A stretch of DNA of 61,511 nucleotides, counting the filler, from Deltaproteobacteria bacterium (GTDB lineage Bacteria; JAUYMQ01), in the NCBI GenBank assembly GCA_030698575.1. It is 12 parts of 12 records of this genome, joined end to end, with 100 filler letters (N's around TTAATTAATTAA, not from the genome) between each part and the next. Parts side by side here need not be neighbours in the genome. Positions count along the whole stretch, not along the records: positions 1 to 8,222 come from JAUYMQ010000225.1; 11 more parts are not named here. One strand, 5' to 3'. The notes beneath the pieces were generated by a model that saw only the letters and a list, made by a program, of their open reading frames with translations, was not told the origin of the DNA and ran no database searches. Below, one piece after another: positions 221 to 11,090 of this stretch. Position 1 is the first letter of the stretch. Every line of letters begins with the position of its first letter. The translations under genes and the position numbers were made by a program.

Positions 221-541
221 ATGACCGCGATCCTGGGCATCCTCGCCCTCGCCGTGCTCTTCGCGCTGTTCGGACTCTTCATGCGCGGGCGCCAGCGGGA
301 GTGCGGAAGCGGCTCATCGTGCGCAGCCCTGGGCCCGGACGGCGTCTGCCCGGCGAACCCCGACGCGTGCCAGGCGATCGCGGTGCGCGCTGCCCAAGCA
401 AACCCACCGCTCCGCTCACGACCCGGGGTCACGGCGCTGGACGTCGGCGCCGCGCAGCTCCGGCGATCCCTTCGGACCCGGATGCGGCCGGGAGGACGTA
501 CATCCATGGAGGACAATGGACATGCCGGACCGCACGGTTGA
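221..541 (+). CDS. small membrane-anchored Cys-rich protein
   Basis: ATG at 221, N-terminal hydrophobic helix, then C-x5-C-x8-C-x6-C; the C-terminal tail may not be genuine. Confidence 0.5.
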
Positions 542-3002
542 GCTCCCGATCCGGGGCATGAGCTGCGCGTCGTGCGTGGCCAAGATCGAATCGACGCTGG
601 CGCGGCAACCCGGAGTGGTGCAGGCCACCGTCAACCTCGCTACCGAGCGGGCCAGCATCCGCGTCCAGGACGGCGCCACCCCCCGGGGGCTCGTCGAGGC
701 GATCCGCGACCTGGGCTACGAGGTCCCCGGAGAGACCATCACGATCCCGGTGCGCGGGATGTCCTGCGCCTCGTGCGTGGCGAAGATCGAGGAGGGGCTG
801 GCGAGCCTCCCGGGCGTCCTGTCCGCCGCGGTCAACTTCGCGGCGGAGCGGGCCACCGTGGAGTACGTCCCGACCCAGGTGGCGGTCGAGGACTTGCGTG
901 CCGCGATCCGGGATCTCGGCTACGAGGTCGGAGAGGTCGCCGGGGCGGCGACGAGCGCGGAGGACCTGAGCGAGCGGGAGGCGCGGAGTCACCAGGCGCT
1001 GCTCTGGAGGCTCCGCCGGAAGATCGCCGCCGGCGCCGTGCTGAGCGTCCCGGTGTTCCTGGGAAGCTATCCGTCGCTCTTCCCCTGGGTGCCGGACATC
1101 CTCCAGAACTTCGTCGTCCTCTGGATCTTGACCACGCCGATCCAGTTCTGGGCAGGGTGGCAGTTCTACCGCGGGGCCTGGGCCGCCCTGCGGCATCGGA
1201 CCAGCGACATGAACACCCTCATCGCGGTGGGGACCTCGGCCGCCTACCTCTACAGCGTGGGGCTGATCCTCTTCCCCGGGTTCTTCCGAGCCCAGGGCGT
1301 CGCGCGCGAGGTGTATTTCGACACCTCCACCATCATCATCACGCTGATCCTTCTCGGGCGGTACCTCGAGGCGGTGGCGCGGGGGCGGACCTCCGAGGCG
1401 ATCAAGAAGCTGATCGGCCTGCAGCCCAGGACCGCCCGGGTCATCCGGCACGGCAGCGAGACCGACATCCCGGTCGCGGAGGTCGTGTCGGGCGACCTGG
1501 TCGTGGTCCGGCCCGGCGAGAAGGTGCCGGTGGACGGCGTGGTCCGCAGCGGGGCGTCGAGCCTCGACGAATCGATGGTCACCGGCGAGAGCATGCCAGT
1601 GGACAAGAAGGCCGGCGACGAGGTCATCGGCGCCACCCTCAACACGACGGGCTCGTTCACCTTCGAGGCCACCAAGGTCGGCAAGGACACGGTGCTGGCC
1701 CAGATCATCAAGCTGGTCGAGGCCGCGCAGGGCTCGAAGGCGCCCATCCAGCGGCTCGTGGACACGGTGACCGGCTACTTCGTCCCGGCGGTGATCGGCA
1801 TCGCGGTCGTGACCGGGCTTGCCTGGTACGCGCTCGGGCCGGCGCCGGCGCTGACGTACGCGCTGCTCAACTTCGTCGCCGTGCTCATCATCGCCTGCCC
1901 CTGCGCCCTGGGGCTCGCCACGCCCACCTCGATCATGGTGGGCACCGGCAAGGGGGCTGAGCACGGCATCCTGATCCGGAGCGGTCAGGCCCTGGAGACC
2001 GCCCACAGGCTGCGGACGCTGGTCTTCGACAAGACCGGCACCTTGACGGCCGGAAAGCCGGCGCTGACCGATGTCGTGCCGAGCAGGGCATTCATCGCCG
2101 ACGATTTCCTGCGCCTGGCCGCGAGCGCAGAGCGCGGCTCCGAGCATCCCCTCGGCGGGGCCATCGTCGACGGCGCGCGCCAGCGAGGGCTCGCCCTCAC
2201 CGATGCCGAGGACTTCCACGCGGTGCCCGGCCACGGCATCGTCGCCCGTGTGGATGGCCGCTCGGTCCTGGTCGGCAATCTGCGCCTCATGGAGGACCGC
2301 GGCGTCGATGGCGGACTCCTTACGGATGAGGCCGCGCGCCTGTCCAGCGCGGGGAAGACGCCCATGTACGTGGCGGTGGACGGACGGGCGGCCGGGCTCG
2401 TGGCGGTGGCCGACACCCTCAAGCCCAATTCGGCCGCGGCGGTCGCCGCCCTGCATCGGCTCGGCCTGGAGGTCATCATGATCACCGGGGACAACCTCCG
2501 CACTGCCGAGGCCATCGCGCGCGAGGTCGGAATCGACCGGGTGCTGGCCGAGGTCCTCCCGGGGGACAAGGCCAAGGAGGTCAAGCGGCTCCAGGACGAG
2601 GGCAAGCTCGTGGGAATGGTCGGCGACGGGATCAACGACGCGCCCGCCCTGGCGCAGGCCGACATCGGCCTCGCCCTCGGGACGGGCACCGACGTGGCCA
2701 TGGAAGCGGCGGACATCACGCTCATGTCCGGAGACCTCCGCGGCGTCGTGACAGCCATCGCGCTGTCCAAGGCCACGATGCGGAACATCAAGCAGAACCT
2801 CTTCTGGGCGTACGCGTACAACACCGCCCTGATCCCGGTGGCCGCCGGCGTGCTGTTCCCGTTCTTCGGCTGGCTGCTCAACCCGATCCTCGCGGCCGCG
2901 GCCATGGCCACCAGCTCGGTCTCCGTCGTCTCGAACGCCCTGCGCCTGCGGCGCTTCCGGCCGCCCGTCCTGCTGGACCACGAAGGGAGGCGGAACCGAT
3001 GA
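516..3002 (+). CDS. copA: Cu(I)-translocating P1B-type ATPase
   Basis: Two GMSCASC metal-binding domains, [24 protein letters not shown] and MxxSS motifs. Confidence 0.95.
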
Positions 3003-3289
3003 AACCCCTGAACCTCACCGTGATCGGCCTGACGCTCGGGCTCCTCAGCGCCATCACCTTCACCCTCTGTATCCTCTGGGATCTGGCCCTGCCCGCGTAT
3101 TCCATGATGCGCGTCTGGGAACTGGTGCTTCCGGGCTTTCGCGGGATCACCCCCGCGAGCTTCGTCCTCGGGCTCGCCGAAAGCTTCCTCTACGGCGTCT
3201 ACGCGGCGCTGGTGTTCGTGCCGCTCTACAACTGGCTGTCGCGGCGAATTGGCGCACAGCCCGCGACAGGAGGGATGAGACATGACTGA
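2999..3289 (+). CDS. DUF5676-like small membrane protein
   Basis: Hydrophobic 96 aa protein with LPGF..I...SF.LGL.ESFLYG.Y pattern; ATGA overlap with copA. Confidence 0.7.
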
Positions 3290-4054: not shown

Positions 4055-4498
4055 ATGGGACATGGGCAGAGGCGGAACAAGCGGGCGAAGCGATGGAAGC
4101 GCAACGCGTACATTCTTATCGTCGGGACGGCGGTCGTCACCGTGGCCTGGCTGGTGGCGCCGGCGGCGCGTGATACAGGCCCGGTGCCGCCCGGCGGGCA
4201 AGTCGTCGACATCGACGGCACGATGGGCGGGTTCTCCATGCAGGAGATCCGCGCCAAGGCCGGGCGGCCGCTGACCGTGCGCCTCACCAGCGTGGACACC
4301 CAGTTCCACACGGACGGCGGCGGCAAGCACCAGTTCGCCATCGACGGGCTGGGCGTCAACATCATCGCTCCCCCGAAGGGCACGCGATGGGCGACGTTCA
4401 CGCCGGCGACGCCGGGAGTCTACGAGTACTACTGCGACGTGTGCTGCGGCGGCCGCGCGAACCCGACGATGCAGGGGCGACTCATCGTGGAGGCGTAG
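4055..4498 (+). CDS. membrane-anchored cupredoxin domain protein
   Basis: TM anchor, HQF and PGVYEYYCDVCCGGRANPTMQGRLIVE cupredoxin-type C-terminus. Confidence 0.8.
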   Translation: MGHGQRRNKRAKRWKRNAYILIVGTAVVTVAWLVAPAARDTGPVPPGGQVVDIDGTMGGFSMQEIRAKAGRPLTVRLTSVDTQFHTDGGGKHQFAIDGLGVNIIAPPKGTRWATFTPATPGVYEYYCDVCCGGRANPTMQGRLIVEA

Positions 4499-4501
4499 CA
4501 C

Positions 4502-5311
4502 ATGCGCGCCGCCCGCGTCCTGACCTTCTCCGTCCTGGCGGTCGCCGCGCTCGGCGTGGCCGCGTGGCTCGGCCTCGGGCGGCCGCCGACACCGGCGTTC
4601 ACGGGGCTGCCGCCTGTGGTCACGCTTGGCACCGTCGTCGTCGCCGGCTTCGCCGACGGCTTCAACCCGTGCGCCTTCACGGTCCTGCTCCTGTTCGTCG
4701 CCTCTCTGCTGGCAGCCGCGCAGCTCCGCACGGGGGAGGGCGCCGTGGCGGTGCGGGGACGCGTGCTCGGGCTCGGGTCGATCTACGTCGCGGCGGTCTT
4801 CCTCACCTATCTGGCGCTCGGCCTCGGCCTCCTGGCCACCAGCGCCATGTTCACCCAGGCCCATGTCCCGGCCCGCATGGCGGCCGTGCTGTCCATCGCC
4901 CTCGGGCTCTGGATGTTGAAGGACTACTTCATCCCGGACCTCGGGGTCCGCCTTCAGGCGCCCGCCGCGGTCGGCGAGTGGGCACGGGCGTCGGCCCGTC
5001 GCATGACGGTGCCCGGTCTCGTCGCCGGCGGTATCCTCATCGGGCTCTGCACCGTTCCGTGCAGTGGCGCCGTCTACCTCGCGGTGCTCTCGCTGCTGGC
5101 CGCTCAGGCGGACCGCCTGGCCGGCTTCGGCTATCTCCTCCTCTACAACCTGATGTTCATCCTGCCACTGGCCGCGCTCCTCGTCGCCGCCTCCTCCCGC
5201 CCCGTGCTGGCCCGCCTCGCCCGGTGGAACCTCGCGCACCGGGAGCGGATACGCCTCGGGCTCGGGACGGGCGTCGTGCTGCTGGGCTTCGCCATCCTGG
5301 TCACGGTGTGA
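4502..5311 (+). CDS. CcdA/DsbD-like transmembrane thiol-redox protein
   Basis: Multi-TM protein with ADGFNPCAF and LCTVPCSGAVY Pro-Cys motifs. Confidence 0.8.
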   Translation: MRAARVLTFSVLAVAALGVAAWLGLGRPPTPAFTGLPPVVTLGTVVVAGFADGFNPCAFTVLLLFVASLLAAAQLRTGEGAVAVRGRVLGLGSIYVAAVFLTYLALGLGLLATSAMFTQAHVPARMAAVLSIALGLWMLKDYFIPDLGVRLQAPAAVGEWARASARRMTVPGLVAGGILIGLCTVPCSGAVYLAVLSLLAAQADRLAGFGYLLLYNLMFILPLAALLVAASSRPVLARLARWNLAHRERIRLGLGTGVVLLGFAILVTV

Positions 5312-5814: not shown

Positions 5815-6178
5815 GGCAGCGGAGCCTTCATGACGGTGACGATGCAGTATCGGTGGATCCTCATCCCGGCGGGCGCTCCCGGGTTGGGCGCAGCCGTTGC
5901 GGTCTACGTCCACGAGCGGAGGCGCTGCGCCCGGCTGGCGTGCCGCATGGCCGGCCGCCGGCTCACGCTGGCCCTCCTGATCCTCGCCCCGATCCTGCTC
6001 GCCACATCCACCGCGCTGGACCGCCTCCCCGAGTTGACGTCGGGTCTGATCGCCCGGGCCAGCGGGGATCGCCCGTCAGGGCGGGCGTCCGCGACGCGCT
6101 CCCGTGCTTGACCACGTGAGGGAACGTGTTAGCATCATCGATGGGTCCAGCAGAGTGACGGTGAGCCTCCGAATCAAG

Positions 6179-6484
6179 ATGACGACCAGGGAATTTTCCG
6201 CGCTGACCGCTGTGACGGCGCTCCTCGTGTTGCTCTTCTGCCTCTCCAGCTCCGCTTCGGCTCCCGCCGCCGAGACTGGATGCGCGGAGTCCGACTCCTC
6301 AGTCAGGGTCTGTGGGCAGTCGCGTCTCGCGGATCCCGTCCCAGCCATCGTCCCCCAGGTTTTCCCGATGCAGTGGGACCGGGCGGTGACCGCCTCGCTT
6401 CCGGTGCTGTCGGCTCCCTCGTTGGTTTCGCAGATCCACGCGAGCCCCTCGTCTCCGCGCGCTCCACCCGCTTCGCTCGCCTAG
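6179..6484 (+). CDS. putative secreted leader protein with C-terminal RAPP motif (DUF2946-like)
   Basis: Signal-like N-terminus, Cys residues, ends SPSSPRAPPASLA*; lies upstream of the selenoprotein pair. Confidence 0.55.
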   Translation: MTTREFSALTAVTALLVLLFCLSSSASAPAAETGCAESDSSVRVCGQSRLADPVPAIVPQVFPMQWDRAVTASLPVLSAPSLVSQIHASPSSPRAPPASLA

Positions 6485-6869
6485 CTCCGCTTCAACCGTA
6501 GCCGGCTGCTCCGCCCGATTCGATAAGGTCGGCGTCCGCTCCGGGGTCCCTCCGGCCTCGCGTTGCGCACCCGCCCCTATCCGGCGAACGGCCGGCCTCC
6601 CCCGAGTCCGCGCAGGCGCGTCCGCCGCGCTGACCGCCAGCCGGCGTGCCAAGGGCGGGGGATGGCCGTCGAGGCCATGCGGGCGCCGAAGGCGCAGAGG
6701 TCACCGTTTGCGTGGAGCCAGGCTCACCGGAGAGCACGAGGGCGAGACGGATGGAACAGAGGATCGGCACGACCGGCCGGGTGCGGGTCCGCACGATCAA
6801 CCGCTGCTCTGGCGAGCCGGCCAGCCATCTGGCCGCACAGCTAGAGCAGAGCACAGAAGCGGGGGCGAG

Positions 6870-7775
6870 ATGAGACTGATCACGATGTGGCGGAGTCTGG
6901 TGGGATCTCTGGTGTGTCTGGCCGTGGTCGGCGGGCAACTGCCCGCCTGGGCGGGCGAGCGGCCGTCGAAGGGGCAGGCGAAGCGCGCCTTCGAGCATGT
7001 CCACGCGCTAGCGATGGATGCGGAGGGGCGAAGCCTCTACCTGGGGACGCACCCGGGGCTCTCCCGCACCGAGGATCGGGGCCGGACCTGGCAGCCGGTC
7101 ACGCTGTCGGCGACGCATGGCCCCCTGGATACCATGGCGCTGATCGCTGACCCGAAGGACCCGGGGACCCTCTACGTGGCCACCCACGAGGCAGGAGTGT
7201 TCAAGACGCAAGACGGCGGACGCTCCTGGGCCGAGACCAGCACGGGACTCGGAGGGCTTGACGTTCACGGCCTCGCCCTTGACCCCAACGACCCGCGGAA
7301 GCTGCATGCCGCCGTGCGCGGGCGGGGTGAGGGGGTGTACCGGACCACCGATGGCGGCGCCGTGTGGGTGAGGGTGGACGACGGGCCCGCCGGTGAGGTC
7401 AAGGTCCTCACCTCGGTGAACATCCCCACGGGGATGGGCGGGATCTTCCTCTACGCCGGCACGGCCGAGGGCCTGGTCCGCAATCCGGACTGCTTCTGAG
7501 GGTGGAAGGCGGTGGGCGGGCTGCCCACCAGGCGCACGGTGAACGGCTTTGCGGTGAGCCCGGAGAACCCCAACCTGATGTACGCGGCGATGCGCGACGG
7601 GATCTTCCGCAGTGACAGCGCCGGGGAGACGTGGGCCCGCGTGACGAATGGCCCGAAAAACGTCGCGGCCGTCACGGTCAACCCGAAGACGCCCAGCGAG
7701 CTCTACGCCGCGACGATGGACGGCAAGATCTTCCGGAGCGTCGATGGAGGCATGCGGTGGAACGAGTCTCGCTGA
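6870..7775 (+). CDS. secreted BNR/VPS10-type beta-propeller protein with in-frame TGA at 7497-7499 (candidate selenocysteine)
   Basis: Signal peptide and repeated S/T-x-D-G-G-x-T/S-W boxes on both sides of the TGA in the same frame (NPDCF*GWKAVGGLP...RSDSAGETW...RSVDGGMRW). Confidence 0.75.
7511..7529 (+). promoter_or_regulatory. putative bacterial SECIS hairpin
   Basis: GGTGGGCG-GGC-TGCCCACC stem-loop starting 11 nt after the TGA at 7497. Confidence 0.65.
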
Positions 7776-8222
7776 CAGTCGCGGCCGTCTTCCTCCTCGT
7801 GATCGGGGCGCCTTTCGGCGCGACCGCAGGCGGGGCGAAACACCCGTTCGACGCGATGGCGGTCCATCGCCCCGTCGAGCTGTTGCCGGTGCCCGAGTTC
7901 GTGTTCACGTCCCTCGACGGGCGCGAGGCCCGGCTCACCGACTTGCGCGGGAAGGTGATCGTGCTTGGGTTCTTCACGACCACGTGACCGAACTGCCGGC
8001 GGGAGGCTCCCGCCAAGGCGAAGCTGTACCGGGAGTTCAAGGAACGAGGCGTCGAGTTCGTGGGCGTCGGGTTGCGCGAGAACGCGGCCGCGCTCAGGGT
8101 CTTCGCCCGGGAGTTCGGGATCGAGTTTCCGCTCTGGATCGAGCCGCAGGGCCGGAGCCCCGCCGCCTTCGGCGTATGGGGCCACCCCAGCACAATCCTC
8201 ATCGACCGGGCGGGCACAGTCG
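7757..8222 (+). CDS. TlpA/ResA-like thioredoxin-fold protein with UxxC motif (candidate selenoprotein), 3' truncated
   Basis: GTG start with GGAGG RBS; ...LTDLRGKVIVLGFFTTT*PNCRREAP...GVEFVGV...PSTILIDRAG; TGA 7985-7987 sits at the first Cys of CxxC. Confidence 0.88.
7998..8014 (+). promoter_or_regulatory. putative bacterial SECIS hairpin
   Basis: GGCGGGA-GGC-TCCCGCC perfect stem starting 10 nt after the TGA at 7985. Confidence 0.7.
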
Positions 8223-8322
8223 NNNNNNNNNNNNNNNNNNNNNNNNNNNNNNNNNNNNNNNNNNNNTTAATTAATTAANNNNNNNNNNNNNNNNNNNNNN
8301 NNNNNNNNNNNNNNNNNNNNNN
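8223..8322. other. artificial contig spacer (same type at 11304, 18352, 22954, 26917, 30022, 35479, 38721, 43120, 50459 and 58609)
   Basis: 100 nt of N with central TTAATTAATTAA, which gives stops in all six frames. Confidence 0.98.
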
Positions 8323-8620: not shown

Positions 8621-9478
8621 TCAGGCTACTGGACGCTGTAGAGGTCCTAGATAAAGCTCGGGCTCACGAGCAAAATCCACCTCTGCTGCAAGGGCGCGGA
8701 GAAGGGCAACTCGCCAGTCATTGCGACCGAAGTCATTGGACAGGCTTGTAGCTGAGGCTTCGAGGAAGGTCCTGAGTGCGGCCTCGCCGATGGTGCCCAC
8801 CTGCAGAATTCCCACCCTTTGTTCTGAGAGATAGGTGTTGATCCGTTTGGGGTAGCGCTCGTTCAGCTTCAAACGGTCAAGCTGGAATTGGAGTTTCGCC
8901 GCAAGGATGGGATCGATGTTGGCAGCATCGATCCGGAAGCTCACTTGAAGGGCACCATCCACATACAAGGCATCGGCCCTCAGGAAATCCTGATCGGGTA
9001 GCGTCTGGAAATAGGGGTGAATGAAGCCCGGCGCAGTGGCGTCGTCCAAGCCGGGGACAATGGCACGTTTAGCGTTGTTGCAGGGATTGCAACTCGGGAT
9101 GAGGTTGCGCGGATAGATCGCCAGTTCCCCGTAAGCGCTGCGAGGAAGATAGTGATCTAGGTCCCGTGGCTCGCCGAATCCGCAATAGGGACAGATGTCA
9201 GCCGAGGCTAAAAGTCGGACGCGAAGGTCAGCCAACCTGCCGCCGACCTGCACCTGATCATAAGCGGCTTGGAGCGCCTGTCTTGCCCCATTGAGCTCGG
9301 GAGGCGCCAGGTCGAGGTGCGGCTGGCCCAGAAGGTCGTCGTAGAGTTGGTAAACCGTGTGAACAGCGCCTCGCTCTACCGCCGACAGCGCATAAACCGG
9401 CAGCCCGTTGGCGTAGGTCAGAGCACGATCTAGAATCGCGTCCAGATCGCCACGCGCATCTGGAGTGAGGTTCCACAT
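8621..9478 (-). CDS. HNH endonuclease (PtuB-like)
   Basis: CPYCG...LDHYLP...NLIPSCNPCNNAK. Confidence 0.85.
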   Translation of the reverse strand: MWNLTPDARGDLDAILDRALTYANGLPVYALSAVERGAVHTVYQLYDDLLGQPHLDLAPPELNGARQALQAAYDQVQVGGRLADLRVRLLASADICPYCGFGEPRDLDHYLPRSAYGELAIYPRNLIPSCNPCNNAKRAIVPGLDDATAPGFIHPYFQTLPDQDFLRADALYVDGALQVSFRIDAANIDPILAAKLQFQLDRLKLNERYPKRINTYLSEQRVGILQVGTIGEAALRTFLEASATSLSNDFGRNDWRVALLRALAAEVDFAREPELYLGPLQRPVA

Positions 9479-9485
9479 GCCCGGA

Positions 9486-11090
9486 CTATCTGCTGGCTAG
9501 GAGAGTCATGACAAAGGCCCGCGCCTGAAGGCTCATGCCTTTGTCGAACAGCTTTTCGATTCCCTCCAAGGTCATGCCTGCATCAACGAGGGCGGCGAGA
9601 GTCTTATGGAAGTCGGTTGCCTCCGTCGCGAGACCGAAAACCTCATTGGTAATCTCGCCAATACTCTCTCCGTAGGTCTCAATTGTCGGCGGGCGGATGC
9701 GCGTCTCGGCCGACCGGCGGACCACCGCGATGTGGCGGGCAAGGGTTTCCTGGACTACGACCGGCGAATGGGTGGCGATCACTGCGAAAGCATCATTCTG
9801 CCTGAGTATGAGGCGCATGGCATGCATCAGGGCCGCGAGGAGCGGAGGATGCAGATGGCTTTCGGGCTCGTCGAACAGGACGATCGATTTGGGTTCGGTG
9901 AAGGCGACAAGGGATGCCGCCGCGTGCATGACGATCTTGTGCCCGGTGCTCCATGAGTCGAACCGGGCAATCGGGGCTTGGATGACCGCCGTAGCAGGAT
10001 CGGTACCGAGATCGGTGAAAGAGGCGTCGGTTGCAAGAATGCGACAGACTTGGCCAAACAACTCCTGTCGGCCCGCTTCTTGAATCTGGCCAATAGTCGT
10101 ACCGAACTCGTCCGACAGCTCCTGACTCGACTTGAGGATGATCCTTTCCTGTCGATCCAAGTCCAACGGCTGAATGGGATTTCCGTCGACATCGCCGATA
10201 CCCTCGGCCTGCATCAACTCCCGGCGCATGCTGCGCAGGCCGCAGTAGTGATAGCGGCCGCTGCCACGAGCCATGTCGTCGACAATTTGCTTCTGCTCAG
10301 GGTACCCCACGCCCGGAAGCTGGAAAGCGTCGAAGGCGCTGTAGGCCAAGTTGACTACACGGGTGAAGCCGATCCCTGCTGGCTCGATCTCACCGAGGCT
10401 TTGCAAGGCTTCGCTGGCCCGGTCTCGCTGAGAGGCATGTAGAATGCGGGCCAAGCGCGAGATCAGGGTGCTCTTTCCAGCTCCGTTTCGGCCGATCAGG
10501 ATCGCGACACGATCGGGGAGTGCGGCGGAGGTATTCCGCCAGAAGCGATCGCCCGGAGCCTCGAACGAGAGCCTGAGCGGATCGGCCCACCCTCTTACCT
10601 GGAAAGATAGGTCCAAGCCCAGACGTGCCACGCGTGTATAATCCCGAGCGAGCAGGACGGCCGCGTCGCGGCGGAAGGTTTCCCATTCGATGTCGCGGAC
10701 GACTGATGTGCTCCAGCCGGGCTCGTCCAAGAAGGCTGCGGCGTGGTCTGGATAGGCCAAGGCGTCTCGGAGCGCTTCTAGGACCTCCTTGCGAAGATCC
10801 TCGGGCAAGGTTGCAAGCCGCTCGTAGTAGTCTAGGTCCTGCCCTAACGAGACGAAGTCGGGGCCGAGCGGCGCCAGCGTTCCAACCGGGAGCAGAAGCC
10901 CGTCAGCCTTTGTCTGACCGCGGCGGAGAATTTTGACCTGACCGATCCGCCCGGAAAATTCCGGCATGGACACGTACAGGTGGTAGAGGGTCATGAAGCT
11001 GAAATCGTTCCAACCGTCCCGCTGAAGGCCAATACCTTCGAAAGAGGAGGGCTCAGATTTGGAACGAGGAAAGACGGTAATGGCGATCAT
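9486..11090 (-). CDS. ABC/AAA_21-type ATPase (PtuA-like)
   Basis: Walker A GRNGAGKST, WSTGHK signature, Walker B VLFDEPESHLHP, H-loop ATHSP. Confidence 0.85.
   Translation of the reverse strand: MIAITVFPRSKSEPSSFEGIGLQRDGWNDFSFMTLYHLYVSMPEFSGRIGQVKILRRGQTKADGLLLPVGTLAPLGPDFVSLGQDLDYYERLATLPEDLRKEVLEALRDALAYPDHAAAFLDEPGWSTSVVRDIEWETFRRDAAVLLARDYTRVARLGLDLSFQVRGWADPLRLSFEAPGDRFWRNTSAALPDRVAILIGRNGAGKSTLISRLARILHASQRDRASEALQSLGEIEPAGIGFTRVVNLAYSAFDAFQLPGVGYPEQKQIVDDMARGSGRYHYCGLRSMRRELMQAEGIGDVDGNPIQPLDLDRQERIILKSSQELSDEFGTTIGQIQEAGRQELFGQVCRILATDASFTDLGTDPATAVIQAPIARFDSWSTGHKIVMHAAASLVAFTEPKSIVLFDEPESHLHPPLLAALMHAMRLILRQNDAFAVIATHSPVVVQETLARHIAVVRRSAETRIRPPTIETYGESIGEITNEVFGLATEATDFHKTLAALVDAGMTLEGIEKLFDKGMSLQARAFVMTLLASR

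Follow-up and report, generated by a model that had tools for sequence, protein, structure and literature searches.

The window analyzed here is a 61,511-nucleotide (nt) stretch of DNA from the deltaproteobacterial assembly GCA_030698575.1 (66% G+C), made of 12 contigs joined by N spacers. Its first contig (positions 1 to 8222) carries two overlapping genes that very probably encode selenoproteins: a β-propeller protein with a predicted export signal and a thioredoxin-fold protein of the TlpA type. The propeller gene starts with ATG at 6870, meets an in-frame TGA at 7497 to 7499 (residue 210) and stops at 7773 to 7775, giving 301 residues when the internal TGA is read through. The translation then runs ...VRNPDCF-U-GWKAVGGLP..., where U denotes selenocysteine (Sec), with Asp-box (BNR) repeats on either side. 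The TlpA-like gene begins with GTG at 7757, overlapping the last 19 nt of the propeller gene, and its own TGA (7985 to 7987) yields FFTTT-U-PNC. All the features described in the initial annotation of this DNA were recovered in place, and its prediction that standard annotation would break the two genes into four open reading frames (ORFs) proved accurate, as ordinary gene calling gives 6708 to 7499, 7512 to 7775, 7631 to 7987 and 8060 to 8278. Further coordinates are collected in Table 1.

Table 1. Coordinates of the two predicted selenoprotein genes, their elements, and genes upstream of them in the window
Feature	Position	Strand	Basis
Predicted propeller selenoprotein gene, 301 codons plus stop, one in-frame TGA	6870..7775	+	Read-through, Pfam, AlphaFold2
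Predicted Sec-type signal peptide, residues 1-29, ...LPAWA/GE	6870..6956	+	Inferred by reading the sequence
G-M-G-G loop, residues 188-191, A-B loop of blade 4	7431..7442	+	Alignments A4 and A1; model strands
Cys208 codon TGC; TGA in three related sites	7491..7493	+	Locus comparison
Predicted Sec210 codon TGA	7497..7499	+	TGA in 40 of 41 related loci, 42 sites in all
SECIS-like hairpin GGTGGGCG-GGC-TGCCCACC	7511..7529	+	42 of 42 sites; synonymous-site constraint
Predicted TlpA/ResA-like UxxC selenoprotein gene, 3′ end lost at contig end	7757..8222	+	Pfam/NCBIfam; L006 orthologue
Predicted Sec77 codon TGA, first Cys position of CxxC	7985..7987	+	Homologue alignment
Cys80 codon TGC, resolving Cys of U-P-N-C	7994..7996	+	Sequence
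SECIS-like hairpin GGCGGGA-GGC-TCCCGCC	7998..8014	+	Window and 10 orthologues
Copper P-type ATPase, CopA-like, two HMA domains	516..3002	+	Pfam E1-E2_ATPase, Hydrolase, HMA (two)
DUF5676 protein with two transmembrane segments	2999..3289	+	Pfam
Cupredoxin-like protein, resembling the CuA domain of NosZ/CoxB	4055..4498	+	Pfam, NCBIfam
Membrane protein, two Cys in predicted transmembrane segments, faint likeness to the DsbD membrane domain	4502..5311	+	NCBIfam, Pfam

To examine the propeller TGA, we compared the gene with its relatives in species-representative genomes. A DNA search returned 56 loci, 41 of which are close relatives (45 to 72% identity). Their metagenome-assembled genomes (MAGs) bear about ten phylum- or class-level names, comprising Rokuibacteriota/Methylomirabilota/NC10, Binatia, Deltaproteobacteria/Syntrophobacteraceae, Tectomicrobia, Nitrospinota, Acidobacteriota (Vicinamibacterales, Acidiferrales), Limnocylindria, Eisenbacteria, and Beta- and Gammaproteobacteria. 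TGA occupies the aligned codon in 40 of the 41 loci, within an invariant D-[C/U]-F-U-G-[W/F] motif, and no TAA, TAG or sense codon was found there in any of them; the sole exception, L040, has a deletion and a frameshift that garble the region. One locus, L019 (genome G008, flagged as unpublished), is counted both among these 40 and among the genomes tested for Sec genes below. Adding the window and the other tandem copy of L039 makes 42 sites, and at all of them TGA is present and the frame is kept. The terminal stops of the same genes, in the 41 with a complete 3′ end, are divided among TGA (28), TAA (6) and TAG (7). Such retention of the internal TGA (40 of 41 related loci), set beside terminal stops that vary, goes beyond chance. 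Protein identity to the window copy is 65% upstream of the TGA and 57% downstream (36 loci), with coding continuing in frame beyond the TGA.

The residue two positions before Sec210 also varies. At three of the 42 sites (L027, L030 and the first copy in L039) the motif reads D-U-F-U in place of D-C-F-U, which indicates Cys/Sec exchange at position 208. The paired Sec codons at these sites (L027 5622, L030 5616, L039 1208) lie one codon apart and share one hairpin, so that one codon of each pair stands 6 nt beyond the usual hairpin spacing. In locus L039, two propeller selenoprotein genes stand in tandem (716 to 2403). The first encodes D-U-F-U, the second D-C-F-U, and a multicopper oxidase gene comes next, in overlap.

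Protein databases present this family in truncated form. A search of 5.8 billion clusters gave 1366 matches, and among the best 120, which were inspected, 115 are 180 to 238 residues long, every one of them ending ...DCF; members that end in this way carry the NCBI name 'WD40/YVTN/BNR-like repeat-containing protein'. The five full-length entries are P0005 and four proteins lacking the motif (PFRE, LSGE, SLGG and SLGV). P0005 (321 residues), the sole close full-length homologue among the best 120 of the 1366 matches, carries Leu in place of Sec (CF-L-GW), a residue that a single base change in TGA can give. The initial annotation had named a residue other than Cys at this site in homologues as a sign against Sec. 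Such residues do occur, but only trivially, in P0005 with its Leu and in four Sec-less relatives from which the whole hairpin motif is missing. A profile search with alignment A1 against 1.84 billion representatives was uninformative on Cys forms, the best 150 matches all being giant multi-propeller BNR proteins, and a search of the species-representative genomes for Sec-less relatives gave one close match, a known Tectomicrobia locus, the others being generic BNR proteins at 24 to 36% identity. Three Streptomyces loci (L047 to L049) were considered as family relatives and rejected, as they encode GH74-type enzymes of 741 residues in a sugar-uptake context.

Hairpins resembling a bacterial Sec insertion sequence (SECIS) lie 3′ of both TGAs, as the initial annotation had pointed out, at distances of 11 nt in the propeller gene and 10 nt in the TlpA-like gene. 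In the propeller family the element GTGGGC-GGTCT-GCCCAC, or a close variant, is found 11 to 12 nt past the TGA at 42 of 42 sites. We assessed constraint at 36 four-fold degenerate third positions in codons whose residue is the same in 90% or more of the sequences. Entropy at codons +5, +6, +7 and +9 after the Sec codon, all within the hairpin, is 0, 0, 0.16 and 0.28 bits, as against 0.76 to 1.9 bits at the remaining 32 sites; because the synonymous sites inside the hairpin are nearly invariant, the constraint acts on RNA and not on protein. Two stem pairs are changed on both sides and four of the eight never vary, and the stem is too invariant for a covariation count to be informative. An Rfam scan of 6500 to 8222 gave two chance-level matches, neither SECIS-related. 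In the TlpA-like gene, the hairpin GGCGGG-loop-CCCGCC recurs 10 nt after the TGA in 10 orthologues, with the six-pair core fully paired in 9 of 11 sequences when the window is included.

The TlpA-like protein matches the Pfam families AhpC-TSA (76 bits) and Redoxin (62 bits), in keeping with a thioredoxin fold of the ResA/TlpA type, and its FFTTT-U-PNC aligns with the WC-x-PC of neighboring CxxC paralogues. The initial annotation's assignment of this gene as a UxxC selenoprotein, U taking the place of the first Cys in CxxC, is well supported, as TGA and hairpin are found in 10 orthologous loci; besides the window, 10 of the 41 loci carry the orthologous motif FF[TK]T[TWF]-U-P-x-C-RRE, and the full-length orthologue in L006 (184 residues) is 80% identical. 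Around the propellers, tblastn detected TlpA-like proteins with CxxC (31), with UxxC (11), and with neither motif (13, several of them SCO1-type with C-x3-C-P). Against the WAxxUGC family model the window protein scores 41 bits, with the cut-off at 300. UxxC redoxin, TlpA-like and Prx-like selenoproteins are listed in Table 1 of a recent catalogue (PMC13188914), and the present gene resembles them in its AhpC-TSA/Redoxin fold, Sec at the start of CxxC, export signal, and hairpin at +10 nt. It shows no essential difference from these oxidoreductases and is a further member of that catalogued group. Near the propeller in L032, another thioredoxin-fold gene (2778 to 3134) has U-D-S-C at its active site and is possibly a further selenoprotein.

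The propeller is of a different kind. Pfam matches to Sortilin-Vps10, BNR and PSII_BNR exceed their cut-offs (54, 35.2 and 28.5 bits against 33, 27 and 27), and the only NCBIfam matches, to the F510_1955 family 'glycosylhydrolase' model (NF045728, 119.1 bits against 175) and Ycf48 (NF010237, 32 bits against 326), do not; the protein belongs to neither of these two families, since it scores below their curated cut-offs. An AlphaFold2 model of the mature domain, built on a 41-row alignment, has six four-stranded blades (mean predicted local distance difference test 93.6, predicted template modeling score 0.91). A fold search of the model against 48,161 representative chains ranks six-bladed propellers first (NHL, the PknD sensor, SMP30/lactonase, sialidase), the top six-bladed matches having Z scores of 24.2 to 18.6 and root mean square deviations of 2.7 to 3.4 Å over 225 to 254 aligned residues. 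Foldseek against the Protein Data Bank (PDB) returned generic BNR/WD40 propellers, including GH74 enzymes and Ycf48, at TM scores of about 0.6, and no functional lead.

Five blades, aligned by eye, carry ordinary Asp-boxes (SRTEDRGRTW, FKTQDGGRSW, YRTTDGGAVW, FRSDSAGETW and FRSVDGGMRW), and the counterpart of this box (consensus S-x-D-x-G-x-T-W) in blade 4 is VRNPDCFUGW. In the model, the tip of the blade 4 Asp-box hairpin, which joins the third strand to the fourth, is flanked by Cys and the predicted Sec, beside the G-M-G-G loop. Among the 36 Sec forms of alignment A4, the invariant residues (mature numbering) are H5, H7, H23, M51, H68, H95, D100, R120, R130, D133, G150-M151-G152-G153, D169, C170, F171, U172 and G173; mature C170, U172, M151 and H5 correspond to full-length Cys208, Sec210, Met189 and His43. 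The G-M-G-G loop, invariant in the Sec forms, is lost in the Sec-less relatives, and His43, Met189, Cys208 and Sec210 are lost jointly in all four of these proteins, which keep H7, H23, H68 and H95 as well as Met89. By strand order, the invariant His43, His45, His61, His106 and His133, together with Met89, fall at inner-strand starts and second-strand ends of blades 1 to 3. The modeled propeller would thus have its His residues on one face near the axis, with the G-M-G-G loop and the Cys-x-Sec hairpin of blade 4 on the other, and the His/Met cluster may be a separate, perhaps older, metal site in the central channel.

Comparison with known proteins sets the propeller apart. It resembles BNR/Asp-box propellers such as Ycf48, GH74 xyloglucanases, sialidases and F510_1955 in its Asp-box repeats, Pfam matches and propeller fold. 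However, it has six blades, whereas Ycf48 has seven and GH74 enzymes consist of two propellers, and it differs from all these relatives in having one Asp-box turned into a Cys-x-Sec hairpin and in standing in copper operons rather than in a carbohydrate or photosystem context. F510_1955 itself is described as an Anoxybacillus lipoprotein without known function (PMC3948429). Metal-handling selenoproteins are on record, namely the Cu/Zn efflux transporter SO_0444 (UxC), CopZ-family and MerT-like proteins, and an E1-E2 ATPase with UxxC (PMC13188914). The propeller is like them in its short Sec and Cys motif and heavy-metal resistance context, but their folds are unrelated, none is a soluble secreted propeller, and there is no sequence match.

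Within the catalogues covered, the propeller has a fold, motif anatomy and gene context that are uncatalogued for selenoproteins. The initial annotation had called it a selenoprotein of an unrecognized type, and this stands, as it matches no NCBIfam selenoprotein model and falls outside the May 2026 catalogue, whose Table 1 gives no propeller or BNR protein among 119 prokaryotic selenoprotein families and subfamilies (PMC13188914). Nor is a propeller-type selenoprotein mentioned in the main texts of PMC13188914, PMC13326102, PMC12013277 and PMC9312934. Full-text literature searches returned nothing relevant linking selenoproteins with BNR or bacterial β-propeller proteins, or selenocysteine with Rokubacteria. 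According to PMC13188914, a groundwater MAG survey reported 'potentially novel candidate selenoproteins' and, in one Methylomirabilota MAG, 63 genes for selenoproteins; the propeller family may be listed in that survey (Deng et al. 2026) or by Haft & Tolstoy 2025.

Sec incorporation requires dedicated genes, and ten related genomes were searched for them: two Rokubacteria, an Acidiferrales, a Tectomicrobia and a Limnocylindria member, and then five further Rokubacteria. All of the first five have selD with one in-frame TGA of its own, together with selA in three, selB above the cut-off in two, and tRNA-Sec in three (69 to 76 bits). Among the five further Rokubacteria, selA and tRNA-Sec lie on the same contig in four. 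Both selA and tRNA-Sec (at least 68 bits) thus total 7 of 10.

Taken together, the conserved TGA, the in-frame conservation beyond it, the hairpin spacing and the Sec machinery of relatives bear out the initial annotation's view of the propeller as a selenoprotein, and we hold it very probable that each of the two genes truly encodes a selenoprotein and is decoded by the usual SelB/SECIS route of bacteria. That the propeller TGA is instead a true stop, producing two polypeptides (blades 1 to 4a and 4b to 6) or the N-terminal 209 residues alone, is how all database entries among the best 120 of the 1366 matches are annotated. The break would, however, fall within a β-hairpin, and the reading is highly improbable in view of a frame kept at 42 of 42 sites with TGA always and TAA or TAG never, a second TGA that replaces a Cys codon at three sites, the synonymous constraint in the hairpin, and the 57% identity kept downstream. 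It is hardly credible that faulty sequencing or assembly produced the TGAs, or that an altered code or near-cognate read-through has them decoded as Trp, Gly or Cys. TGA recurs in independent assemblies from many studies, it terminates 28 of 41 of the same genes, and selD has its own TGA in five of the five genomes tested. The concern over sequencing error raised in the initial annotation was also addressed directly: contigs from three runs in three studies bridge 7497 to 7499 unchanged, and no change at either TGA is among the 40 differences listed in an overlay on the window, 88 more differences existing.

The genes around the propeller point to its setting. The copper cluster described in the initial annotation is present, with genes for CopA, a DUF5676 protein and a cupredoxin upstream of the propeller. 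Its label of CcdA for the product of 4502 to 5311 does not hold, as the NCBIfam DsbD model gives 17 bits against a cut-off of 330 and no DsbD family is matched in Pfam, where SfLAP reaches 24 bits, below its cut-off. Two further ORFs upstream of the propeller in the window are without family assignment. Just upstream of the propeller, an ORF of 126 residues (6104 to 6484, + strand) has a signal-peptide-like start and no Pfam or NCBIfam match; relatives at 40 to 43% identity also precede the propeller in L009 and L028.

In seven other loci, Pfam annotation gives a similar picture, with copper export and oxidation proteins (CopA, multicopper oxidase, RND and HlyD efflux parts), the regulators CsoR and MerR, copper chaperones and assembly factors (SCO1, DUF411/CopG, PCYCGC, Caa3_CtaG, YtkA), several thiol-redox proteins (TlpA-like, DsbA-like, DsbD_2), and Rieske proteins and di-haem cytochrome c as electron carriers. 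For a count, we used local tblastn, with representatives of the annotated proteins as queries, on 42 family loci, the window among them (328 kb), and, as controls, on 15 distant BNR loci from the same DNA search (L042 to L056, 141 kb), where none of the markers counted was found. The family loci contain genes for TlpA-like proteins (32 of 42), multicopper oxidase (22), SCO1 (18), DsbD_2 (13), Rieske proteins (11) and CopA (10); any copper marker is present in 36 and any thiol-redox gene in 39. Di-haem cytochromes c occur in 8 family loci. The propeller family is thus tightly linked to periplasmic copper and thiol-redox genes.

The linkage is closest for the multicopper oxidase, the commonest direct neighbor, which is adjacent on the same strand in 14 loci; the UxxC TlpA gene does not hold this place. 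In 8 of the 22 loci with an oxidase, its gene starts before the propeller stop (the ORFs overlap by 19 nt in L018 and L023), in 6, of the NC10 type, it ends 22 to 121 nt upstream of the propeller, in 7 it lies 530 to 3939 nt away, and in 1 its position is ambiguous. In the clade of the window (L006, L022, L024 and L026), the overlapping downstream gene is that of the UxxC TlpA. Downstream of the propeller, several loci encode a small exported Rieske [2Fe-2S] protein (L013 6410 to 6940, L018 8043 to 8546, L027 5970 to 6518, L007 6183 to 7004), and a Rieske protein is once fused to a TlpA-like domain. The Rieske proteins hint at an electron path in the copper clusters.

The remaining contigs of the window bear on other matters. 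The spacers (N44-TTAATTAATTAA-N44) stand at 8223 to 8322 and at ten more places, and neighbors across a spacer are unlinked; contig ends cut genes at 8222, 11303 and the remaining junctions. On another contig, a candidate defense pair of the Septu-like kind (8621 to 11090, minus strand) sets a 534-residue ATPase beside a 285-residue protein with a Cys/His nuclease-like motif; PADLOC scores are 346 bits for PDC-M01A, 259 for PtuA and 133 for PDC-M01B.

We infer a copper function for the propeller solely from its gene context, and we propose a mechanism in which Cys and Sec capture Cu(I), hand it on, and are re-reduced by TlpA-like reductases; as a whole we put its probability at roughly 0.55. 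In this scheme the reduced Cys/Sec pair, possibly with Met189, would capture Cu(I) exported by CopA, and the ion would then be sequestered or handed on, either to the multicopper oxidase or to further copper proteins. The pair would be oxidized by copper or oxygen to a selenenylsulfide, which neighboring TlpA-like reductases would reduce again, in the window clade the UxxC selenoprotein with the overlapping gene. A DsbD-type protein would carry the electrons for these reductases across the membrane. More broadly, the Cys/Sec hairpin with Met189 is a putative periplasmic surface site for Cu(I) binding or redox chemistry. A TlpA relay servicing the propeller, as the initial annotation suggested, is plausible from gene order. 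The more specific proposal that an obligate Cys-Sec (or Sec-Sec) hairpin is the direct Cu(I) ligand feeding the multicopper oxidase, with no Cys-only version tolerated, we offer as tentative and somewhat doubtful.

CusF, CopC, and CueP with the Scs thiol-redox system are periplasmic copper accessory proteins, and the propeller differs from these, as from CutF, in having no homology to them, a propeller fold and Sec for Cys, its copper binding being predicted. CutF, a small Cu-binding accessory protein encoded in the multicopper oxidase operon cutFOG (PMC8456105), offers an analogy of action only, in that the propeller too is predicted to be exported, is encoded beside a multicopper oxidase or CopA, and would have Cys-type ligands kept reduced. 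This precedent (PMC8456105) also bears on the possibility that the propeller is a CutF-like maturation or delivery factor dedicated to the adjacent multicopper oxidase and not a general copper buffer, for which the overlapping oxidase genes in 8 loci and those 22 to 121 nt upstream in 6 likewise speak. Such a role is unlikely, as the locus DNA of 20 of the 42, the window included, has no oxidase and the overlapping downstream gene in the window clade encodes the UxxC TlpA.

Met is a typical Cu(I) ligand, and the co-conserved Met counts against another possibility, that the propeller is a periplasmic redox or redox-repair enzyme in which copper is not a ligand and Cys-x-Sec cycles through a selenenylsulfide, reducing or isomerizing copper-damaged disulfides, peroxides or Cu(II). 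Thiol-redox genes in 39 of 42 loci, together with Rieske proteins in 11 and di-haem cytochromes c in 8, would suit such an enzyme, and most CxU/UxxC selenoproteins are thought to be redox proteins (PMC13188914). The hairpin is nevertheless on the propeller rim, with no cofactor site recognized beside it, and the tightest linkage is to an oxidase and not to a reductase. We therefore regard a purely redox role as possible but rather doubtful.

Several observations weigh against the proposed Cu(I)-capturing selenoprotein. The gene neighborhood fits copper binding and copper-damage repair alike, and strand order in the model would place the His cluster on the propeller face opposite the Cys/Sec hairpin. 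No Cys form of residue 210 was found among the homologues, which is unusual for a selenoprotein family; Cys homologues at the Sec position are usual in such families but not obligatory. The four Sec-less relatives that lose the motif jointly represent only about three independent lineages. As to the hairpin, its stem pairing (94.2% of cells) is reached by 228 of 500 shuffles, and the loop is GGC in the window only and GTC at the other 41 sites. The window contigs contain no selA, selB or selD and only four ordinary tRNAs, and the Sec machinery was found in relatives and not in the window's own genome. Three of the ten relatives (G001, G002 and G006), all incomplete MAGs, are without selA and tRNA-Sec; G001 and G002 carry a Sec-type selD, and since selA and tRNA-Sec share a single contig, loss of that one contig explains all three.

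If the Sec reading is true, the propeller adds to the known selenoproteins a family with a β-propeller fold in which an Asp-box has turned into a Cys-x-Sec hairpin. It would correct apparently many database entries that end at residue 209 (115 of the best 120, out of 1366 matches). The absence of a Cys form, combined with the Sec-x-Sec variants, makes the family a good case for asking what Sec does beyond Cys at a metal or redox site. It would also link selenium use to copper detoxification in abundant uncultured bacteria of soil and groundwater, and, if the copper role holds, copper tolerance would depend on selenium supply in Methylomirabilota/Rokubacteria, Binatia, Tectomicrobia, Nitrospinota and further lineages of soil and groundwater.

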